From IMG/VR virus record IMGVR_UViG_3300026097_000027, positions 1-57,230 of that record: 57,230 nucleotides of DNA, one strand, 5' to 3'. Source of the DNA: a virus (taxonomy: Duplodnaviria > Caudoviricetes). Positions within the stretch are counted from its first letter, which is position 1, and each line of letters opens with the position of its first letter. Below are positions 459 to 11,071 of the stretch, piece after piece. Below the pieces are notes generated by a model. It saw nothing but the letters and a program-made list of their open reading frames with translations, was not told the origin of the DNA and searched no databases. The translations under genes and the position numbers were made by a program.

Positions 459-3400
459 TATTGTTTAACCTTGTTAAGTAAATTTTGTTTTTGTGTTTCT
501 AGTTCTTTAATTCGTTCTATATCTTCGTTAAGATCGCCAGCATCAAGGAATAGTTCAGTTTGAGGACGACTAACAGGTGTAATATTATCATAGGCTGCTT
601 CTTCTGCATCTCTGTATGGCTGTCTAACTTTATCGTATTCTGCACGTAGATTATCGATTCTTTGTTTTTCTGCTATAGCAGCAGGATCATTAGGGTTTGC
701 TTCAACAGCTTTACCAGCAGCAACAATATCTTTAAATTCGTATCCTTTATCATAAGTTCTTTCAAGTTCTTGTCTATCTGCTGTTGCTTGTTCGGCTATT
801 GCTCTTCTTCTATCAATTTCGGGCTGAAGTGCATCCTGCTGTGCAAAGTTTTCTTGTAACTGCTGCTCTAGTTCTGGTCGAGTTCCGCCAGCTCTTTGTT
901 CTATTTGTGCAATTTCGTTATCAATTTCTTCTATTTGAGATTCTACAACACCTTCTTCATTTTCAGACAGTCTGGTTTCTTCATCGGCTAACGGTGTTTC
1001 TTCAAAATCAGGAGTATTTTCTTCGCTTACAGTTTCTGAATCTGTGGGCTGTTCTTCTTGTCCTCCAGTTTCTGTTTGAACATTTTCACCAGTGCCGTCT
1101 GGTGGTGATGGAGGTGGCTGATCTGGCCTTTCGTTTGATTGAGACCTAATTTCTGTAGAAGCTGCAGAGTCAATAAATCTATCAATTTTAATATTAAAAC
1201 TTTTTGTATCGGGTGCAATGTGTTCTGCCGGTTGCTGTTTGGCAAATTCTTGGTCAAATACACCTACAGATTCTTTTTCTTTATCTAATGACTCATCGAA
1301 ATCTATAGATTGGCCTCGCATTCTAATACATTTTAAAGTTTGTTTAAACAACCCGTCTTCAAAAATATTAACACAACTGATGACTTTGTAAATTCCACTA
1401 AATGGGCTAATAACTTCTTCTTTAGAAAAGTTGTATAAACTAGTCGAAGTATTAACATCTGCCGGCGTTCTAAAAGTGATATAAATGTAGATATCACTGC
1501 CTTCGTAGTTCGCAGTACCGTCTTCGTTTTTAAGTTCAGTTTCATCCGATGGGGGTGAAAAGTAATTAGTCAGGCCGCTGTCAACCATCCAATACGGATC
1601 ACCCATTATTTCTAGATTGAGATTTACTAGATCAACATTATTATTAAGAAATGCATTGTTAAACATCATTGCAATTTCTTTTTCTCTAGTACTTGTACCT
1701 TCTGCATCAGAACTTTCTTTATAAGGTGCTGATTTTCTAATTCGGGCTGGGAAATAACCAGTTTGTACTTTAAGAGGATCGCCTGTGCCTGTTTCCAACG
1801 GTGTCGGCGAATCGCCATCGATAACGATGCCACCTTGATTCTTTTCTACTTCATCGCCAGTTTTGCCAGGGGGACTGCCAGTGATTGCATTAAAGAATTG
1901 ATTTTTAATACTAATATCAAATTTTAAGACGTCTGTGTTTTGCCCTGTGTAAATATAATTGTAAGCTTTGACAATTTTTTTGGCTAACTTATCATATCCT
2001 ACTGGCGGAGTAGTTGGGTTTGTAAAAATGCTGTGATGTATTTTAAATGGCACAACACGATATGTTATTAATCGACTGTAATCGCCAACTAGCTTGTCAT
2101 AATCTAAAAACTGTATTTGAGCATCTATTCTGAACCAACTTATAAATCCTTCATCATCTATATTGCTAGGTTTAAGTGCATCTGCTGCATATTTTGAACT
2201 TAAAATACTCTGAACTATGATTTCAGTAAGGCTTTGATTTTGTTTAAAATGAAAAGTTCTCTGTTTAAAATCGATCTGCATTTTGTCACGAATAATTCTG
2301 CCTGTTTCTTCATCAACAACATCAGTAGCACGACTAAATTTATAGTTTCCTCCACTAGATTCGTCGAACCCAAAAACACTGGCTCCTATTGGGTTTTCTC
2401 CAAATTCCAGTTTAATATCCGAGCCAACACTGCTTATCGGGCGAGCTGAAAATCTATTAATTAATTGTGTAGCAGTGTTAGATCCAGAAGCGACTACACT
2501 GCTTACAAATTGATCAGAATTGGTAGGGAATTCTACAATGTACACATCAGGTTTTCCGATCAGTCCTGCCTCGACTAATCTGCTTTCATTATTGTTTAAC
2601 ACGCTGGTTAAACTGTCTGAACCTTCTACCAGTAGTTCTCTAACTGTACCCTTTTTTCCTGGACTTATTGCAATATCTTTAAAAATAGAATTTATAGTAT
2701 TACTGTATGCACTGTGATTATACGGTATGGCGGTCAGTTTATATGTACTTCCGCCTTCATTAACATCAAAGGTTGTATTTGTAATTTTAACTGTAAAAAA
2801 CTTTGGTTTAATAGTAGTAAATGGTGTGCCATCTTCACTGTAACCTTGCATGTCTAGTCTAAACACATAAGGAGCATTATCTAAATAGTTTGCATATCCT
2901 GCATTAAGAGCAGCATTTTGCATACTTTGTAATAAGATGCCCATACTATATGGTTCATAGATTTCTAATTCAAACAGTACAGCATTAGAATTACCGGTTT
3001 GAGGAGTGGCTGTTATTATGGATTTCATTTCGAAACTTTCGACAAAATATTCCGGACTTCCATGAAATGTACTAACACGCTGACTGTTAAATCTTCCAGC
3101 ACTTGAAAAGATAATATTTTCTAAACTTGCAGGATTATTTCTATATAAATCTGGTTGATTAAATTGATCTTTAGTTAAACAAGCCATGGTCCAAAGAGGA
3201 GTGTATGATGCAAACTGCTCTAATGGGTTTAATAATCTGTTAGGCAATTTTTCATTCGATGTAGGCTGTGTTTTAGTAGGATCTGTTATTTGTTCAACAG
3301 GTTCCCCATTTTGAAAATCTTGGATGGCTCCTTGAAGATCTAATCCTGTAATAACTGTAGCTTCGCCTTGATTAACCTTTTCGCTGTCATTGGCTTTTTT

Positions 3401-6039: not shown

Positions 6040-7050
6040 ATGGCACTATTTAAAAAGGCTGCTTGTTTCACCGACATCCATTTCGGTCTTAAAAGCGGAA
6101 GTAGAATTCACAACAACGATTGTGAAGAGTTTGTTAATTGGTTTTGTGCAGAAGCAGTGAAAGAAGGCTGCGATACATGCATCTTTTTAGGTGACTGGCA
6201 TCATAATAGAAACAGCACAGATGTTTCTACAATGAACTACACTCTAAGCAATCTAGAAACATTAAGCAAGACTTTTGAAAAGGTGTATTTTATCCTTGGC
6301 AATCACGACTTGTTTTATAAAGACAAGCGTGAGATTAACTCAGTAGAGTTTATGCGACTGTTTCCTAATGTTGTTCCTATTAGAGAGCCATTTACAGAAG
6401 GCGATGTTACTATTTTACCTTGGTTAGTAGGCGATGAATGGAAAAATATCAGTAAAATTACCAGTAAATATCTGTTCGGACATTTAGAATTACCCAGCTT
6501 TTATATGAATGCTATGGTACAGATGCCAGATCATGGCAACTTACAAAGCACACATTTTGTTAATCAAGATTATGTATTCAGCGGACACTTTCACAAGCGT
6601 CAGCAAAAAGGCAACATTGTGTACATGGGCAATGCATTTCCACACAACTATGCAGATGCATGGGACGATGAGCGTGGTATGATGATTTTAGAGTGGGACG
6701 GAACTCCTGAATATCGTTCTTGGCCTGATCAACCTCTATATCGCACATTTAAGTTGAGCGATTTAATTGATCGAGCTGATTCTGTGTTAACAAATAAAAT
6801 GTATTGTCGTGCAACTATTGATGTAAGTTTAAGTTTCGAAGAAGCAAACTTTATCAAAGAAGAATTTATTAAGACTTATGGATTAAGAGAACTTATTCTT
6901 ATTCCTGAAAAAGTAGAACTTGATTCTAACAGCACACCTATTGACTTAAATTTTGAAAGTGTAGACACTATTGTGTTAAATCAACTTACTCAAATTGAAA
7001 GCGAAGCCTACGACGGCAAATTGTTATTGGATATCTATAGAGAACTATGA
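6040..7050 (+). CDS. gp47: Recombination endonuclease subunit, Mre11/SbcD-like (T4 gp47)
   Basis: Metallophosphoesterase motifs DIHFG, LGDWHH, GNHD, GHLE, SGHFH. Confidence 0.92.
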   Translation: MALFKKAACFTDIHFGLKSGSRIHNNDCEEFVNWFCAEAVKEGCDTCIFLGDWHHNRNSTDVSTMNYTLSNLETLSKTFEKVYFILGNHDLFYKDKREINSVEFMRLFPNVVPIREPFTEGDVTILPWLVGDEWKNISKITSKYLFGHLELPSFYMNAMVQMPDHGNLQSTHFVNQDYVFSGHFHKRQQKGNIVYMGNAFPHNYADAWDDERGMMILEWDGTPEYRSWPDQPLYRTFKLSDLIDRADSVLTNKMYCRATIDVSLSFEEANFIKEEFIKTYGLRELILIPEKVELDSNSTPIDLNFESVDTIVLNQLTQIESEAYDGKLLLDIYREL

Positions 7051-8822
7051 TTAAAATTAAAAATCTCACAGTCCGCAACTTCATGAGTGTGGGCAATCAA
7101 ACACAGGCTATTGATTTTGACAAAGGTCAGCTTACTCTAGTACTAGGTGAAAACTTAGATCTTGGAGGAGATGCTGACGGTGCTCGTAACGGTACCGGTA
7201 AAACTACAATTGTAAATGGGTTAAGTTATGCTATCTACGGATCTGCACTCACAAACATTAAAAAAGACAATTTAATCAATAAAATAAACAGCAAACAGAT
7301 GTTAGTAACTTGCAGTTTTGAAAAAGATGGTGTAGAATATCATATCGAGCGTGGTCGCAGGCCTAATCTATTAAAATTTAAAGTTAACGGTCACGAACAA
7401 GAGACTAGCGATCACGACGAAGCACAGGGCGACAGTCGAGAAACACAAAAAGCCATTGAAGAAATTTTTGGCATGGGTCACGACATGTTCAAACACTTAG
7501 TTGCACTCAACACATATACCGATCCATTCTTAAGCATGCGTAGCAACGATCAACGAGCTATTATCGAACAATTGTTAGGTATTACGCAATTAAGTGAGAA
7601 GGCTGAGAAACTAAAAGAGAGTATTCGATTAACTAAAGACGAAATTAGTACAGAAACTGCAAAAATTGATGCAATCAAATCTAGTAATGACAGAATTTTA
7701 CAGAGTATTGAGAGTCTAGAACGCAAACAGCGTCTGTGGGAAGAAACTAAAAAGAAAAATATTAGTGATTTAGAAAAATCTATTGATGTTCTAAATCACA
7801 TTGATATCGATCAGGAGATTGAACTCCAAAGAGCTAAGGCGATATGGGTTGAAAGCAAGCGTGAGATTGATAATATACAGAGTTTGATTGCAAGACAGAC
7901 TGCAACCGTTGAAAAAGAGCAACGAGTTTTAGAAAAATTAGAAAAAGAACTGGTTACATTGCACGATCACAAATGTCATAGTTGCGGGCAGGATATTCAC
8001 GACGATCAACACGAAGAAATGTTAAGAAAAAAAGCTGATCAAGTCAACGAGTATCAAAAGTCTGTTGAAGAACACGGAAAAGAACTTACCGGCTTAGAAG
8101 AAGCAAGAACATTGTTAGGCGAGCTTGGCAATTGTCCTAGTGTACAATATGATAATTTAGAAGAAGCACTTAATCATAGAAATACTTTAGAAGGATTACA
8201 AAAAGATTTAGAATCTAAACGTGTAGATGAGAATCCTTATAATGATCAAATCGAAGAATTGAGAAATTCTGCAATACAAGAAATTAGTTGGGATATTATA
8301 AACGATTTAACTCGTGTTAAAGAACATCAAGAATTTTTATACAAGTTGCTTACAAACAAAGACAGCTTTATTCGTAAAAAGATTATTGATCAAAATTTAG
8401 CATTTTTAAATCAAAGATTAACATACTATTTGTCTAGTCTAGGACTACCGCATCTTGTAGAGTTCCAAAACGATTTAAGTGTTATTATTACACAACTAGG
8501 CCAGGATTTAGACTTCGATAACTTGAGTAGAGGTGAGCGTAATAGACTCATTTTGTCAATGAGCTTTGCTTTCCGCGATGTTTGGGAAAATTTATACCAA
8601 AGTATTAACTTATTGTTTATCGATGAGCTAGTTGATAGTGGCATGGATACCAGCGGTGTGGAAAATAGTATTCGTGTTCTTAAGAAAATGACTAGAGAAC
8701 GCGATAAAAATGTGTTTTTAATCAGTCACAAGGACGAACTAATTAGTAGAGTTAATCAAGTCCTTAAAGTTGTAAAAGAAAACGGCTTTACTTCATATAA
8801 TACGGATGTTGACATTATATGA
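7047..8822 (+). CDS. gp46: Recombination ATPase subunit, Rad50/SbcC-like (T4 gp46)
   Basis: Walker A NGTGKT, coiled coil with CHSC zinc hook, signature LSRGE, Walker B LLFIDE, H-loop ISH. Confidence 0.93.
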   Translation: MIKIKNLTVRNFMSVGNQTQAIDFDKGQLTLVLGENLDLGGDADGARNGTGKTTIVNGLSYAIYGSALTNIKKDNLINKINSKQMLVTCSFEKDGVEYHIERGRRPNLLKFKVNGHEQETSDHDEAQGDSRETQKAIEEIFGMGHDMFKHLVALNTYTDPFLSMRSNDQRAIIEQLLGITQLSEKAEKLKESIRLTKDEISTETAKIDAIKSSNDRILQSIESLERKQRLWEETKKKNISDLEKSIDVLNHIDIDQEIELQRAKAIWVESKREIDNIQSLIARQTATVEKEQRVLEKLEKELVTLHDHKCHSCGQDIHDDQHEEMLRKKADQVNEYQKSVEEHGKELTGLEEARTLLGELGNCPSVQYDNLEEALNHRNTLEGLQKDLESKRVDENPYNDQIEELRNSAIQEISWDIINDLTRVKEHQEFLYKLLTNKDSFIRKKIIDQNLAFLNQRLTYYLSSLGLPHLVEFQNDLSVIITQLGQDLDFDNLSRGERNRLILSMSFAFRDVWENLYQSINLLFIDELVDSGMDTSGVENSIRVLKKMTRERDKNVFLISHKDELISRVNQVLKVVKENGFTSYNTDVDII

Positions 8823-9046
8823 GTTCCGATTCCCACGATAAAATGATTGAAGCATTTCAAAATTATTTCAAATGGCAAGATCGTTTTGAGTATCGTGGGA
8901 GTGATGAAGCAGGTATGCGAGCTCGAAAATGGCTGAGTGAGATTAGGAAAGAAGCTTCGAAGAGACGCAACGAAATACAAGAGAAGCGCGAAGAGAGAAA
9001 AATAGCCAGAAAAGGCATGGTAGGGAGACCGAAGAAAACTAAGTAA
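8819..9046 (+). CDS. Small basic protein, possibly histone H1-like (Hc1-like) nucleic-acid binding
   Basis: 75 aa. AGMRARKWLSEIRKEASKRR resembles the AG.RARK helix of Hc1-like proteins, and the tail is K/R-rich. ATGA overlap with gp46. Confidence 0.45.
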   Translation: MSSDSHDKMIEAFQNYFKWQDRFEYRGSDEAGMRARKWLSEIRKEASKRRNEIQEKREERKIARKGMVGRPKKTK

Positions 9047-9051
9047 GTCTG

Positions 9052-9477
9052 ATGTCAGAGTGGACTTACAATGGTCAAATAGTACAAGAACTTCCTAAAG
9101 ATTGTGAAGGCTTTGTCTATTTGATCACAAATACTACTAATAATAAAAAATACATAGGCAAAAAACTAGCACGATTTAAAAAAACTAGACCACCACTTAA
9201 AGGCAGAAAAAATAAAAGGCGTAGCACAGTAGAAAGTGACTGGAGAGACTATTGGGGATCTTCAGATCATCTAAATGCTGATGTAAAGACACTAGGCCCA
9301 GACAAATTCACAAGAGAAATCCTTCATTTTTGTCCTAGCAGAGGCGTATTAAGTTATCTAGAGGCTAAAGAGCAATTCGACAGGCGTGTACTAGAAACGG
9401 ATGAATACTATAACGGTATTATCAATGTGCGTGTAGGCAGTTCAAACATTCTTAAAGAACATCTTAAAAAATTATAG
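9052..9477 (+). CDS. Minimal GIY-YIG endonuclease
   Basis: GFVYLITN...KKYIGKK, YWGSS, catalytic E (YLEAKEQ) and YYN motifs. Only 141 aa, with no C-terminal DNA-binding modules. Confidence 0.8.
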   Translation: MSEWTYNGQIVQELPKDCEGFVYLITNTTNNKKYIGKKLARFKKTRPPLKGRKNKRRSTVESDWRDYWGSSDHLNADVKTLGPDKFTREILHFCPSRGVLSYLEAKEQFDRRVLETDEYYNGIINVRVGSSNILKEHLKKL

Positions 9478-9975
9478 GCAAAACACCGTCAATTAAGCCT
9501 CCACTGGCGCAGTTATAGTGGACTTGGACCTGGCACAAGTGCAGCACAGGGAATTGAATATTCGTTTGACGGCGGAGACTCGCATCACTACCAGATGATG
9601 ATGACTGGATATGCCTAATTAACCAGTTTGATGCGTTTAGAACAATATTTTATAGGCTAAAGATGGGAACCAACCCAGGATTTGCACACAAGATAGCATT
9701 TGTTGTGTAGATTTGCCGTCAGACTTAAGAAACTTGGACGGGATGAGCAGGTACCGGCTGACCGCCTGCGTGATGTAGAGATACATTTAATCCTAATGCT
9801 ATTATGATTGTGCTACTCAGATAATAATCATTTTTTACAAGCCCCGGCAACGGGCTTGTTATGACCATACTATCTAGATAATCTTAAAACTGCTTCGCAG
9901 TTAATGTTAGTTCAATTAAAAGAAAGAAAATAGCGCGAGTGCTAACGAAGTGCTGGTGAGCTTTGCTCACCCTTA
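9478..9975 (+). ncRNA. Candidate large structured RNA (~500 nt)
   Basis: Largest ORF-free gap in the window, with at least ten stems. Examples: CCGTCAA 9486-9492/TTGACGG 9566-9572; CGCATCA 9581-9587/TGATGCG 9629-9635; CCGTC 9716-9720/GACGG 9737-9741; GCAGG 9747-9751/CCTGC 9765-9769; GCAA-tetraloop hairpin 9837-9859. There are also two potential pseudoknots. Strand inferred from the GNRA loop and the upstream gene. Confidence 0.7.
9955..9971. terminator. Hairpin GGTGAGC-ttt-GCTCACC between convergent transcription units
   Basis: Perfect 7-bp stem just beyond the stop of the minus-strand gene at 9990. The U-tract is weak, so it may instead be the RNA's last stem. Confidence 0.35.
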
Positions 9976-9989
9976 ACTATTAGAAGTTA

Positions 9990-10219
9990 TTAGAAGAAAG
10001 GCAGTTGTGTCTTTTTAGTAGTTTCAAGATTCTCTTTGATTATTTCTGAAACAATCTCTCTTTCTTCATAACTAAGATTCATACCTTCTGAAAAGGAAAG
10101 ACCTCTCATGTACCAACACATTTTAAGAACTTCTTTCTTGATTCCCCTGGAATCTTTATCCATATTTTTTGCTATTGTTTGGATCTCTGGTTCAGGGAGT
10201 CTCAGGATCCTTTGGCGAA
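9990..10219 (-). CDS. gp51-like baseplate hub assembly protein, probably expressed as a -1 frameshift extension of gp26 (alternative independent start ATG 10163)
   Basis: LKMCWYMRGLSFSEGMNLSYEEREIV resembles gp51/GT-type domains (W/Y-rich, then a short helix ending in ER). The frame is open from the slippery site, and there is no SD before ATG 10163. Confidence 0.6.
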
Positions 10220-11053
10220 AAAATTTGATTGATCCATTGTGATAGGCATTGTAAAGTCTTCGTTGCACTCAGTACATTGAGCATCTACTGGCTTTAATTC
10301 ATTTATGGTTTTCATACTTCCGATATGATCACTGATAGTTTCAAACAAATCTTTCGGAGCATTATTTAAAAAATCTAAAATCATTGCTTGATCACTGACA
10401 TTGCCTTCCGGAGTTACAATGTAATCAATACAGCCAGCAATTACATCAACAGTAAGTTGTGTAAGTTTTACAAAACTGTCATTAAACAAATTGATTTTTT
10501 CTTCGTCTGATAGTTTTTCATCGTTAATTACAGCAAAAATTCTTTGTTGTTCAAATGTTTTTAGATTTGTTTTTGTAATTTCTTGATATGTGTACGGTCT
10601 AATATGAATCTGTAATGGATTATAATCAATAACAGATTTGTACTCGAGATTAGTGGCCTGTCCTAACCAGGTTGTTAGATTAATTGCATAGTTATTTTCT
10701 GCTTCACAGCTTGGACAGTTAGCGGTTACTTCCATTTCTTCGCCATATGTGGCAATTCGAATAGCAACTAACACAGCATCCAAATCTAAACTAGGCATAC
10801 TCCATGGATCTTTGATTGCAGGGATACAGCTCTTGATAACTTCCACAGTGCTCTGCCCACTCAGCAATGCATCAGGTGTTTTAAACAACAGTTCATCCTT
10901 TGCGGTCATAGCATATACAGCATATTCACCGTTTTCTGAACGATCTAATGCAGATTCTGGATAATAATTGCCATTAGATGGCAATTTAATATAAATTTTT
11001 GGTTGTCTAAAGTACTGTGCTAACGGATTTGCTGTTTTTTGCAGATCACTCAT
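10202..11053 (-). CDS. gp26: Baseplate hub assembly chaperone, T4 gp26-like
   Basis: NPL.QYFRQPKIYIKLPS.G, MTAKDELL, LDLDAVLVAIRIATYGE, two CxxC motifs and C-terminal NFF. Start set at ATG 11053, which has the SD GGAG. Confidence 0.8.
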   Translation of the reverse strand: MSDLQKTANPLAQYFRQPKIYIKLPSNGNYYPESALDRSENGEYAVYAMTAKDELLFKTPDALLSGQSTVEVIKSCIPAIKDPWSMPSLDLDAVLVAIRIATYGEEMEVTANCPSCEAENNYAINLTTWLGQATNLEYKSVIDYNPLQIHIRPYTYQEITKTNLKTFEQQRIFAVINDEKLSDEEKINLFNDSFVKLTQLTVDVIAGCIDYIVTPEGNVSDQAMILDFLNNAPKDLFETISDHIGSMKTINELKPVDAQCTECNEDFTMPITMDQSNFFAKGS

Positions 11054-11063
11054 TTTTATCTCC

Positions 11064-11071
11064 AATAAATA
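11064..11071 (+). promoter_or_regulatory. Late promoter AATAAATA for the tape measure gene
   Basis: Late consensus match in the divergent intergenic region. Confidence 0.55.

Follow-up and report, generated by a model that had tools for sequence, protein, structure and literature searches.

Between positions 9478 and 9975 of the viral DNA stretch analysed here (IMG/VR record IMGVR_UViG_3300026097_000027, Caudoviricetes; the whole stretch of 57,230 nucleotides (nt) is called the window) lies a real, strongly covarying, multi-domain structured RNA of about 500 nt, encoded on the plus strand directly behind the gene of a small GIY-YIG nuclease (9052-9477, plus strand). Together with relatives in hundreds of contigs it makes up a large modular family (about 350-650 nt) with a shared 3' domain and swapped 5' domains. 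The family is confined to a clade of jumbo T4-like phages from marine and fresh waters, in which it occupies a slot with the gene order gp47, gp46, a small open reading frame (ORF), a nuclease gene and the RNA, facing baseplate genes. The RNA is not specific to the GIY-YIG protein, because it also follows genes of the PDDEXK_15 nuclease and because GIY-YIG genes occur without it. An earlier note on this window had proposed a nuclease-RNA system in which the RNA, as a guide or scaffold, supplies the specificity that the protein lacks. We consider it probable that the RNA is an independent large phage RNA rather than a guide for the GIY-YIG enzyme, and we give an even chance to the fuller reading that the locus holds two separate adjacent genes, one for an exchangeable recombination or homing nuclease and one for a stand-alone large structured phage RNA. 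Already known are the 5' domain, as an Rfam family of unknown function, and the family to which the nuclease belongs.

Structure of the RNA and evidence for it

The interval behind the nuclease gene (9478-9989, 512 nt) contains no ORF of at least 60 amino acids (aa), and its first part matches Rfam family RF01718, 'Polynucleobacter-1', at 9496-9638 with 94.8 bits (gathering cut-off 37, E 2e-20) over model positions 1-141 of 141. This is the sole Rfam family at gathering threshold in the whole window, and the rest of the RNA has no Rfam match at E up to 1. A pattern made from the RF01718 domain retrieved 24 IMG/VR loci, from which 20 distinct sequences were aligned, and in this alignment the whole ORF-free gap is conserved, beyond the Rfam part alone. 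Covariation was measured in three sub-alignments of 17 homologues that jointly cover 9478-9985, with 500 shuffles and a slid-partner control:

9478-9652: 25 pairs, 97.4% of cells paired, 12 pairs compensatory, covariation 0.479 against 0.209 in shuffled alignments
9650-9835: 28 pairs, 95.6% of cells paired, 16 pairs compensatory, covariation 0.480 against 0.187 shuffled
9812-9985: 18 pairs, 96.7% of cells paired, 11 pairs compensatory, covariation 0.495 against 0.182 shuffled

The observed covariation was reached by none of the 500 shuffles in any of the three sub-alignments, and slid partners gave at most 0.18, so that the earlier note's view of the region as a large structured RNA is borne out by these controls. 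Folding of the single sequence is mildly unusual (z -2.48), which is weak evidence taken alone. The ratios of G-U to A-C pairs, 54:1 and 10:1, assign the RNA to the plus strand, the only one on which the UUCG and GAAA-type loops have the right sequence. The elements that can be distinguished, all on the plus strand, are the following:

9476-9482: junction motif AGGCAAA, overlapping the nuclease stop codon and kept in the 20-sequence alignment, including a locus with a PDDEXK upstream ORF
9486-9640: domain A, composed of RF01718 (9496-9638) and an extra 5' helix, identified by cmscan and covariation
9654-9770: domain B, with AGGCUAA (9654-9660), a 12-bp covarying hairpin (9681-9711) and a helix (9747-9769) enclosing GGUACCGGCUGACCGCC, identified by covariation and with no Rfam match
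9798-9825: direct repeat unit 1, with the core CUC-AG-AU-A-A-U at 9816-9825, from the alignment
9837-9859: inter-repeat hairpin (ACAAGCCC/GGGCUUGU) with a covarying stem and no U-tract after it
9854-9882: direct repeat unit 2, with the core UCU-AG-AU-A-A-U at 9873-9882, from the alignment
9889-9901: C(UUCG)G tetraloop hairpin with invariant GCUUCGC, its stem covarying (CG 10, AU 5 and GC 2 at one pair, UA 12 and CG 5 at the next)
9935-9951: hairpin with a GAGCG..AGCGA-type core that is kept in most family members, the window version, GAGUGCUAACGA, being atypical
9955-9971: terminal 7-bp hairpin GGUGAGC/GCUCACC, terminator-like and marking the 3' end of the RNA; 4 of 4 modelled pairs of the homologous helix covary

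The fold opens 9 nt past the nuclease stop with a helix (9486-9491 with 9567-9572) of which 4 of 6 pairs covary and which is absent from the Rfam consensus structure as displayed by cmscan, to which the window RNA thus adds a 5' helix. Within RF01718 itself, 5 of 7 pairs covary in the outer helix (9581-9587/9629-9635) and 2 of 6 in the inner hairpin (9603-9608/9623-9628), which is 100% paired. What Rfam holds as a whole motif is therefore only the first of three domains here, and it stands after a gene rather than before one.

Several other readings of the interval were tried and rejected. Hidden coding or a recoded stop within 9478-9975 is opposed by TAA stops in all six frames, none of which is opened by recoding one stop codon, and the gap runs of the alignment are mostly not multiples of three. 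A group I or other intron, a ribozyme, a tRNA or a tmRNA finds no match, RF01718 being the sole Rfam hit at E up to 1; Intron_gpI in particular gives no match at E up to 1 within 8000-11000, no tRNA or tmRNA was detected anywhere in the window, and no plus-strand ORF is split around the RNA, in agreement with the earlier statement that it is not an intron. We regard it as highly improbable that the conserved element works at the level of DNA, as an origin, a packaging site or a recombination hotspot whose hairpins act in single-stranded DNA. Such a role would suit a convergent gene boundary beside recombination genes, the two direct repeats of about 28 bp and the adjoining variable insertion zone, where 27-4152 nt separate the RNA 3'-domain pattern from the next gene, a 92-aa ORF, among related contigs; it is contradicted by the full-length, high-scoring match to an RNA covariance model, by the strong strand asymmetry (54 G-U against 1 A-C), by the conserved UUCG and GAAA-type tetraloops and by long-range helices typical of folded RNA.

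A modular family in jumbo T4-like phages

The extent of the family was followed with R1, a covariance model of the RNA 3' domain, and with a set of the 80 loci closest by similarity to the GIY-YIG protein, 10 of which end too soon after the gene to be judged. R1 matches 50 of the 80 at E <=0.021 (38 of them below 1e-6), always on the strand of the gene, and RF01718 is found in only 5. The remaining loci carry different 5' sequences, which fall into several conserved types, and one alternative 5' domain has its own conserved helices, in which compensatory changes affect 6 of 29 pairs. In ten representative loci that lack RF01718, Rfam found nothing. A pattern for the 3' domain retrieved at least 120 IMG/VR stretches, and one for domain A at least 120 metagenome stretches, about 14 of those listed being likely chance matches. 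Related phage contigs score 54-112 bits for RF01718.

RF01718 was listed as a motif of 'Burkholderiales, fresh water/estuary' (Weinberg et al. 2010, PMC2864571). All instances found here lie on phage contigs (in IMG/VR, in metagenomes, and two phage contigs in the bin of a metagenome-assembled genome (MAG)) and none is chromosomal, with the limit that the pattern may miss a Polynucleobacter copy. The two contigs of that 0.9-Mb 'uncultured bacterium' bin, L127 and L128, are fragments of two different phages of the clade, each with the gp46 end, the small ORF, the GIY-YIG gene and the RNA; since the bin contains phage DNA, it is not evidence for a bacterial copy of RF01718. In a further contig, L194, the 3'-domain pattern occurs twice within 170 nt of the contig end, once per strand (18-79 plus, 113-173 minus), which looks like a fold-back assembly artefact.

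Tight linkage to a nuclease gene that is not exclusive

The slot and its flanks are made up of the following genes in the window:

6040-7050, plus strand: gp47, an Mre11/SbcD-like phosphoesterase (Pfam Metallophos, E 1.8e-08), first gene of the operon, its stop overlapping the start of the next ORF
7047-8822, plus strand: gp46, a Rad50/SbcC-like recombination nuclease subunit (Pfam AAA_23 and SMC_N)
8819-9046, plus strand: basic 75-aa ORF, conserved with gp46, with homologues (tblastn) between gp46 and the nuclease in most related loci
9052-9477, plus strand: 141-aa stand-alone GIY-YIG nuclease with a SegE-like catalytic domain, of the phrog_447 family (Pfam, PHROG and structure model)
9990-11065, minus strand: convergent 92-aa ORF and T4_baseplate gene, which bound the slot on its other side and are conserved downstream in related loci

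The 3'-domain pattern set comprises 117 loci among the matches listed, 86 of which are assessable in having at least 1 kb of upstream sequence, and in all 86 a GIY-YIG homologue, 46-86% identical to that of the window, lies upstream on the same strand; from the end of the gene to the pattern, the median distance in the pattern-retrieved loci is 373 nt (range 246-1108). Of 93 assessable metagenome loci among the matches listed, 82 have a GIY-YIG gene within 900 nt and 2 a PDDEXK_15 gene, the nuclease lies 0.9-1.9 kb upstream in 8, and neither is present within the available 1.4 kb in 1. gp46 DNA similarity was found in 70 of the 80 loci retrieved with the GIY-YIG protein, and insertions that flank the gene-RNA pair are far commoner than insertions between gene and RNA. 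At the other end of the RNA, the junction of the terminal hairpin with the 92-aa ORF (window 9972-9990) forms a variable insertion zone, gene-to-RNA spacing being nearly constant by comparison.

The pairing noticed earlier is thus tight, and neither partner is bound to the other. A PDDEXK_15 gene (PF24608, E 2.5e-29; phrog_244, 'RusA-like Holliday junction resolvase') fills the slot in 28 IMG/VR loci, all 28 of them without GIY-YIG, and in 25 of these R1 detects the RNA downstream; RF01718 stands directly 3' of PDDEXK_15 in L089 and in seven more records, those seven scoring 78-112 bits, and these scores are the highest seen. Conversely, Melnitz-like phages carry the GIY-YIG gene after nrdB with no RNA; this applies to 8 of the 80 closest loci, whose proteins are 75-80% identical to the window's, and to the complete Melnitz genome, where the identity is 81% (tblastn in both cases). 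These loci (L016, L018, L033, L059, L074, L076, L079, L082 and, for Melnitz, L001) belong to Kyanoviridae with a Methylophilales host, and an identity of 75-81% in so unrelated a lineage implies recent transfer of the gene between phage groups. The type of the RNA 5' domain does not track the protein either, RF01718 occurring with GIY-YIG proteins that are 50-99% identical and yet in so few of the 80 closest loci. Finally, the arrangement itself varies: nine rearranged loci have the RNA between the 92-aa ORF and the GIY-YIG gene, downstream of the former and upstream of the latter (a weak model match of 25.5 and 16.3 bits, the modules also being recognised by eye), in some loci gene and RNA are 0.8-1.9 kb apart, and in at least nine an extra ORF lies between them. 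In one of these, L143, a 181-aa ORF (616-1161, minus strand of the locus), which belongs to no Pfam or PHROG family, stands between the GIY-YIG gene and the RNA, and the RNA starts right after its stop.

These observations bear on the idea of a GIY-YIG-RNA ribonucleoprotein, in which the RNA binds the protein and gives it DNA-target specificity or a scaffold in the manner of the omega RNAs of IscB and TnpB. It would fit the adjacency (86 of 86 and 82 of 93 assessable listed loci), the insertions that flank the pair far more often than they split it, the missing separate DNA-binding domain of the protein and its confidently modelled basic beta-hairpin (residues 41-61). We nevertheless hold it to be very unlikely, given that the RNA stands 3' of the non-homologous PDDEXK_15 in 25 of 28 loci (with RF01718 in 8), that GIY-YIG genes of 75-80% identity do without it in Melnitz-like phages, that the basic hairpin is shared by homologues without the RNA, that the 5' domain varies independently of the protein, and that gene and RNA can stand in reverse order or 0.8-1.9 kb apart. 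The earlier note had looked to a variable, guide-like segment and to a covarying RNA behind every homologue; no such segment was found, the sole short element that varies in concert comprising only ten types of 7 nt, and homologues in Melnitz-like phages, Prochlorococcus phage P-SSM2 and Escherichia coli phage 3HA14 lack a downstream RNA. With homologous nucleases occurring without the RNA, and the RNA occurring without a GIY-YIG gene in those 25 PDDEXK_15 loci, a guide or scaffold function for this enzyme is not supported.

An exchangeable nuclease slot

The two nuclease types suggest that, behind gp46/gp47, phages of the clade have a position at which nucleases can be exchanged. The nearest isolates by gp46 amino-acid identity are jumbo phages (Phosso 50.0%, PA5oct 47.7%, Atu_ph07 46.9%), and in Phosso and PA5oct a PDDEXK_15 gene lies within about 1 kb of gp46, which suggests an old association of a small nuclease with Mre11/Rad50 and makes the slot look ancestral. 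The likeness consists in the neighbourhood, a small stand-alone PDDEXK_15/phrog_244 nuclease near Mre11/Rad50-type genes; the differences are that the gene in the isolates is on the opposite strand, that neither R1 nor Rfam finds an RNA beside it, and that its resolvase function is by annotation. These comparisons suggest that GIY-YIG is a non-orthologous replacement of PDDEXK_15 in most of the aquatic clade. The identities to the window are discordant between gp46 and GIY-YIG, at 57% against 86% in L204 and 75% against 46% in L173. A clean swap of a GIY-YIG cassette between L173/L234 and L133 was considered and rejected, the nucleotide alignments running through the gene.

Beside PDDEXK_15 near gp46, both isolates have ORF-poor unannotated gaps, L275:7368-8030 (PA5oct 76517-77179) and L276:6911-7924 (Phosso 229759-230772), which fold far better than shuffled sequences (z -7.1 and -5.0, plus strand, 30 mononucleotide shuffles). 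No match to either R1 or Rfam was obtained, and the gaps may encode large RNAs, unrelated to the one described here, at the corresponding position; the four non-coding RNAs published for PA5oct lie elsewhere in its genome (PMC7318152).

The slot also raises the question of homing. GIY-YIG and PD-(D/E)XK are both homing families, and free-standing homing endonucleases could have settled near a cut site in or by the RNA gene, so that adjacency would reflect no more than the choice of target. In support, the GIY-YIG protein has its closest solved fold in the I-TevI catalytic domain and also matches, more weakly, PHROG families named 'homing endonuclease', one site holds two unrelated nuclease folds, and gp46 and GIY-YIG identities are discordant in L204 and L173. 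The GIY-YIG gene also stands after nrdB in an unrelated phage lineage, nrd genes being a classic homing site in T-even phages. More generally, nuclease genes were argued in 2023 to mark boundaries of phage exchange (PMC10448857). Against homing, a nuclease is present in all 86 assessable listed RNA-pattern loci and in all 28 PDDEXK_15 loci, the protein has no DNA-binding domain, the gene is intact over a range of 46-99% identity and not decaying, and gp46-related isolates keep PDDEXK_15 near gp46 without the RNA. No empty slot was seen among the assessable listed RNA-pattern loci or the PDDEXK_15 loci, no gp46-based retrieval aimed at empty slots having been made. We judge target choice an unlikely, if still serious, explanation of the adjacency.

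The GIY-YIG protein

The 141-aa nuclease consists of the catalytic domain only, as the earlier note had recognised: PF19835 (SegE_GIY-YIG) is matched at 123.4 bits (cut-off 25, E 8.1e-36) by residues 4-124 over profile positions 1-123 of 123, about 17 residues extend beyond the Pfam domain, and no second domain was detected in the protein. It also matches phrog_447 (E 2.6e-38), a stand-alone family of about 148 aa that is mislabelled 'NAD synthetase', and proteins of this type are widespread in cyanophages, Synechococcus phages accounting for 339 of the 797 records with a match. An AlphaFold model built with 22 homologues has a pLDDT of 92.6 and shows one compact domain with a C-terminal helix. 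Among solved structures, the I-TevI catalytic domain (1MK0) resembles it most (probability 0.99, TM 0.66 on target); a search of the PDB by sequence gave no matches. F21, V22, Y23, Y34, G36, E104 and Y120 are invariant in the 22-sequence alignment and G20 and N121 nearly so, and in an alignment of eight sequences Y23, Y34, G36, E104 and Y120 as well as G20 and N121 are all invariant, so that the GIY, YIG, Glu and Asn positions, which have catalytic roles, are conserved. The window nuclease thus shares the SegE_GIY-YIG domain, the catalytic fold and the conserved motif residues with Seg-type enzymes such as T4 SegE and with I-TevI. It differs from them in having no linker or DNA-binding domain and in being fixed, not sporadic, in its clade.

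The very basic insertion to which the earlier note drew attention does exist, and it is not peculiar to this protein. The model shows it with confidence as a beta-hairpin (residues 41-61) that falls within the region aligned to the Pfam profile, and it recurs in the homologues of P-SSM2 and 3HA14, where both genes abut the next gene without a gap; being present in homologues without the RNA, it is a family trait and not an RNA-linked addition. A supposed late-promoter variant, ACTAAGTA, indeed lies just upstream of the start codon, at 9039-9046 rather than 9038-9045. It shares nucleotides with the small ORF's stop codon and ends 5 nt 5' of the ATG, and no support for a promoter role was found at the locus.

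Twin repeats in the 3' domain

The 3' domain contains two imperfect direct repeats of about 28 nt, which lie about 57 nt apart and are not tandem. Across the family their cores read CUC-xy-AU-z-A-w in unit 1 and UCU-xy-AU-z-A-w in unit 2. Of the 99 distinct sequences that have letters in both columns, every one has the same x, y and z in both copies, and 98 have the same w. Ten combinations of x, y, z and w occur, and the constant difference between CUC and UCU is retained throughout. Ordinary base pairing does not explain this behaviour, because it predicts complementary and not identical changes. Selection by a common partner, or a contact of parallel type between the copies, are speculations that would account for it.

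A number of other explanations were examined and rejected. Complements of the repeat core within the RNA are not favoured (34 own-type matches against 45.6 in wrong-type controls), and as a genome-wide promoter or common motif the core yields 84 matches with up to 2 mismatches against 54.5 expected, near-exact copies not being in excess and the matches in the window showing no link to gene starts. Pairing with the GIY-YIG coding region, where a complementary 11-mer occurs at 9353-9363, is opposed by synonymous variation of the homologous codons regardless of repeat type. Two mini-ORFs of six codons, seen by eye in the window, are broken by insertions, deletions and in-frame stops in relatives. 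A type III toxin-antitoxin system (ToxIN-like) is likewise rejected, the repeats being two, imperfect and not tandem, and the neighbouring genes having DNA-nuclease folds and not those of ToxN/AbiQ.

Transcription and a possible role in cis

The earlier note was correct that the structured region starts within 10 nt of the nuclease stop with no terminator between them, as no terminator-like site was found there, and the spacing of only 9 nt from the stop to the first helix leaves no room for a promoter. On this basis the RNA would be made by read-through from the upstream gene and would end at the terminal hairpin.

Such an arrangement invites the explanation that the RNA is a cis-acting 3' untranslated region, which sets the stability, termination or translation of the mRNA of a potentially toxic nuclease and which would be a 5' leader in the rearranged loci. 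The RNA begins immediately behind the gene and ends in a terminator-like hairpin, the conserved junction motif overlaps the stop of three kinds of upstream ORF (GIY-YIG, PDDEXK_15 and the 181-aa ORF), and the element is common to two unrelated nucleases; in the rearranged group it lies between a terminator-like hairpin and the GIY-YIG start, and RF01718 itself was rated probably cis-regulatory (Weinberg et al. 2010, PMC2864571). On the other hand, known 3' stabilisers need far less than an RNA of about 500 nt that has over 70 covarying or conserved pairs, contains UUCG and GNRA-type loops and swaps its 5' domains, the position is inconstant (3' in most loci, 5' in nine, with an extra ORF between in at least nine), and the same nuclease family lives elsewhere without the RNA. 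A purely cis-acting role is therefore something we would bet against, while keeping it in view.

Near 9776-9805 the window contains a sigma-70-like match (TAGAGA, a spacer of 18 nt and TATTAT, with TG), located at the least conserved junction of the RNA, and 4 of the 17 aligned homologues (L090, L091, L102 and L108) have extra AT-rich sequence at the junction near 9776-9810. The 3' domain might thus have its own transcription start.

The reading we prefer and its difficulties

We prefer to see the locus as two separate adjacent genes. The GIY-YIG gene is the last cistron of a gp47-gp46-small ORF-nuclease operon and occupies a nuclease slot behind the Mre11/Rad50-type genes that is filled by GIY-YIG in most phages of the clade and by PDDEXK_15 in others. 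For its action on DNA the nuclease may need no RNA partner, whether it is a structure-specific recombination nuclease or a Seg-like homing nuclease. The RNA would act in trans as a stable folded molecule, binding protein or assembling with itself in the way of GOLLD and ROOL, and the twin repeats would be two equivalent contact sites for one partner.

Several observations weigh against this separation. A nuclease gene stands almost invariably directly 5' of the RNA, with two unrelated folds, which could reflect functional coupling, and even in the nine rearranged loci the RNA still adjoins the GIY-YIG gene; the RNA may have a regulatory connection to whatever nuclease occupies the slot. The fixation of GIY-YIG in the clade is a poor fit to a selfish homing gene, as its occurrence after nrdB in an unrelated lineage is to a pure housekeeping role. 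The insertions near 9776-9810 and the sigma-70-like match may mean that the one RNA is two transcripts, the partner of the repeats that covary by identity is hypothetical, and the analogy with GOLLD and ROOL is one of kind only, without an Rfam match to either.

Coupling in its strongest form, which strikes us as rather improbable, would join the RNA and the slot nuclease with gp46/gp47 into one break-processing module, the RNA being a cofactor, decoy or antidote that does not depend on the nuclease fold. It might use the two identical repeat sites to tether or license the nuclease, or it might label DNA or RNA as the phage's own. If this were true, it would be a new kind of nuclease-associated RNA, defined by slot rather than by protein family, and the twin repeats would serve a symmetric partner or a parallel-stranded element as points of contact.

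Relation to known systems and significance

Among large phage RNAs, the closest parallels in kind to a stand-alone RNA of this sort are GOLLD and ROOL, which neighbour tRNA genes. They share with the window RNA that they are large, multi-domain structured RNAs carried by phages, with many covarying helices and tetraloops; the window RNA differs in being smaller, in having exchangeable 5' domains and in its fixed slot after a nuclease gene. GOLLD and ROOL were found by cryo-EM to form homo-oligomers (PMC12286853), and by analogy homo-oligomerisation is one possible use for two equivalent repeat sites. The likeness to OMEGA systems (IscB with HEARO/omega RNA, and TnpB) consists in a compact nuclease gene with a large structured RNA at its end. 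Here, however, the slot nucleases have GIY-YIG or PD-(D/E)XK folds and not RuvC/HNH, there is no HEARO or omega-RNA match in Rfam and no guide segment, and protein and RNA each occur without the other.

In our literature search the terms 'Polynucleobacter-1' and 'RF01718' led only to Weinberg et al. (2010), and nothing was found on PF19835, SegE_GIY-YIG, phrog_447, PDDEXK_15 or PF24608. The architecture of about 500 nt, the modular family, the slot and the identity-covarying repeats were not found described in that search, and pieces may be in the supplements of two papers. Fremin et al. (2023) predicted 8,495 short candidate RNAs (29-151 nt) from IMG/VR (PMC10690425), among which pieces of the window RNA may be present.

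Large structured RNAs without a known job are rare and have repeatedly opened new biology. The present family gives a context to a 15-year-old orphan Rfam motif, as the first domain of a phage RNA of about 500 nt, and it offers experimental handles in its fixed slot, its natural domain swaps, the swaps of the neighbouring nuclease and the repeats that keep their identity. The tempting reading of an RNA-guided GIY-YIG nuclease is corrected ahead of bench work.

Window, operon and minor observations

The window is a 57-kb IMG/VR viral contig with a completeness estimate of 16%, which implies a full genome of probably about 350 kb. The four plus-strand ORFs of gp47, gp46, the small protein and the nuclease overlap or abut in an operon-like manner. 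The basic 75-aa ORF (8819-9046) does precede the 141-aa ORF (9052-9477) as described in the earlier note, and it has no Pfam family above cut-off and no PHROG family. The heptamers AGGCAAA (9476-9482) and AGGCUAA (9654-9660) mark domain boundaries of the RNA and could be candidate processing sites. In the rearranged group, AGGCUAA-like copies recur several times at the start of the RNA (L024:2340-2440).

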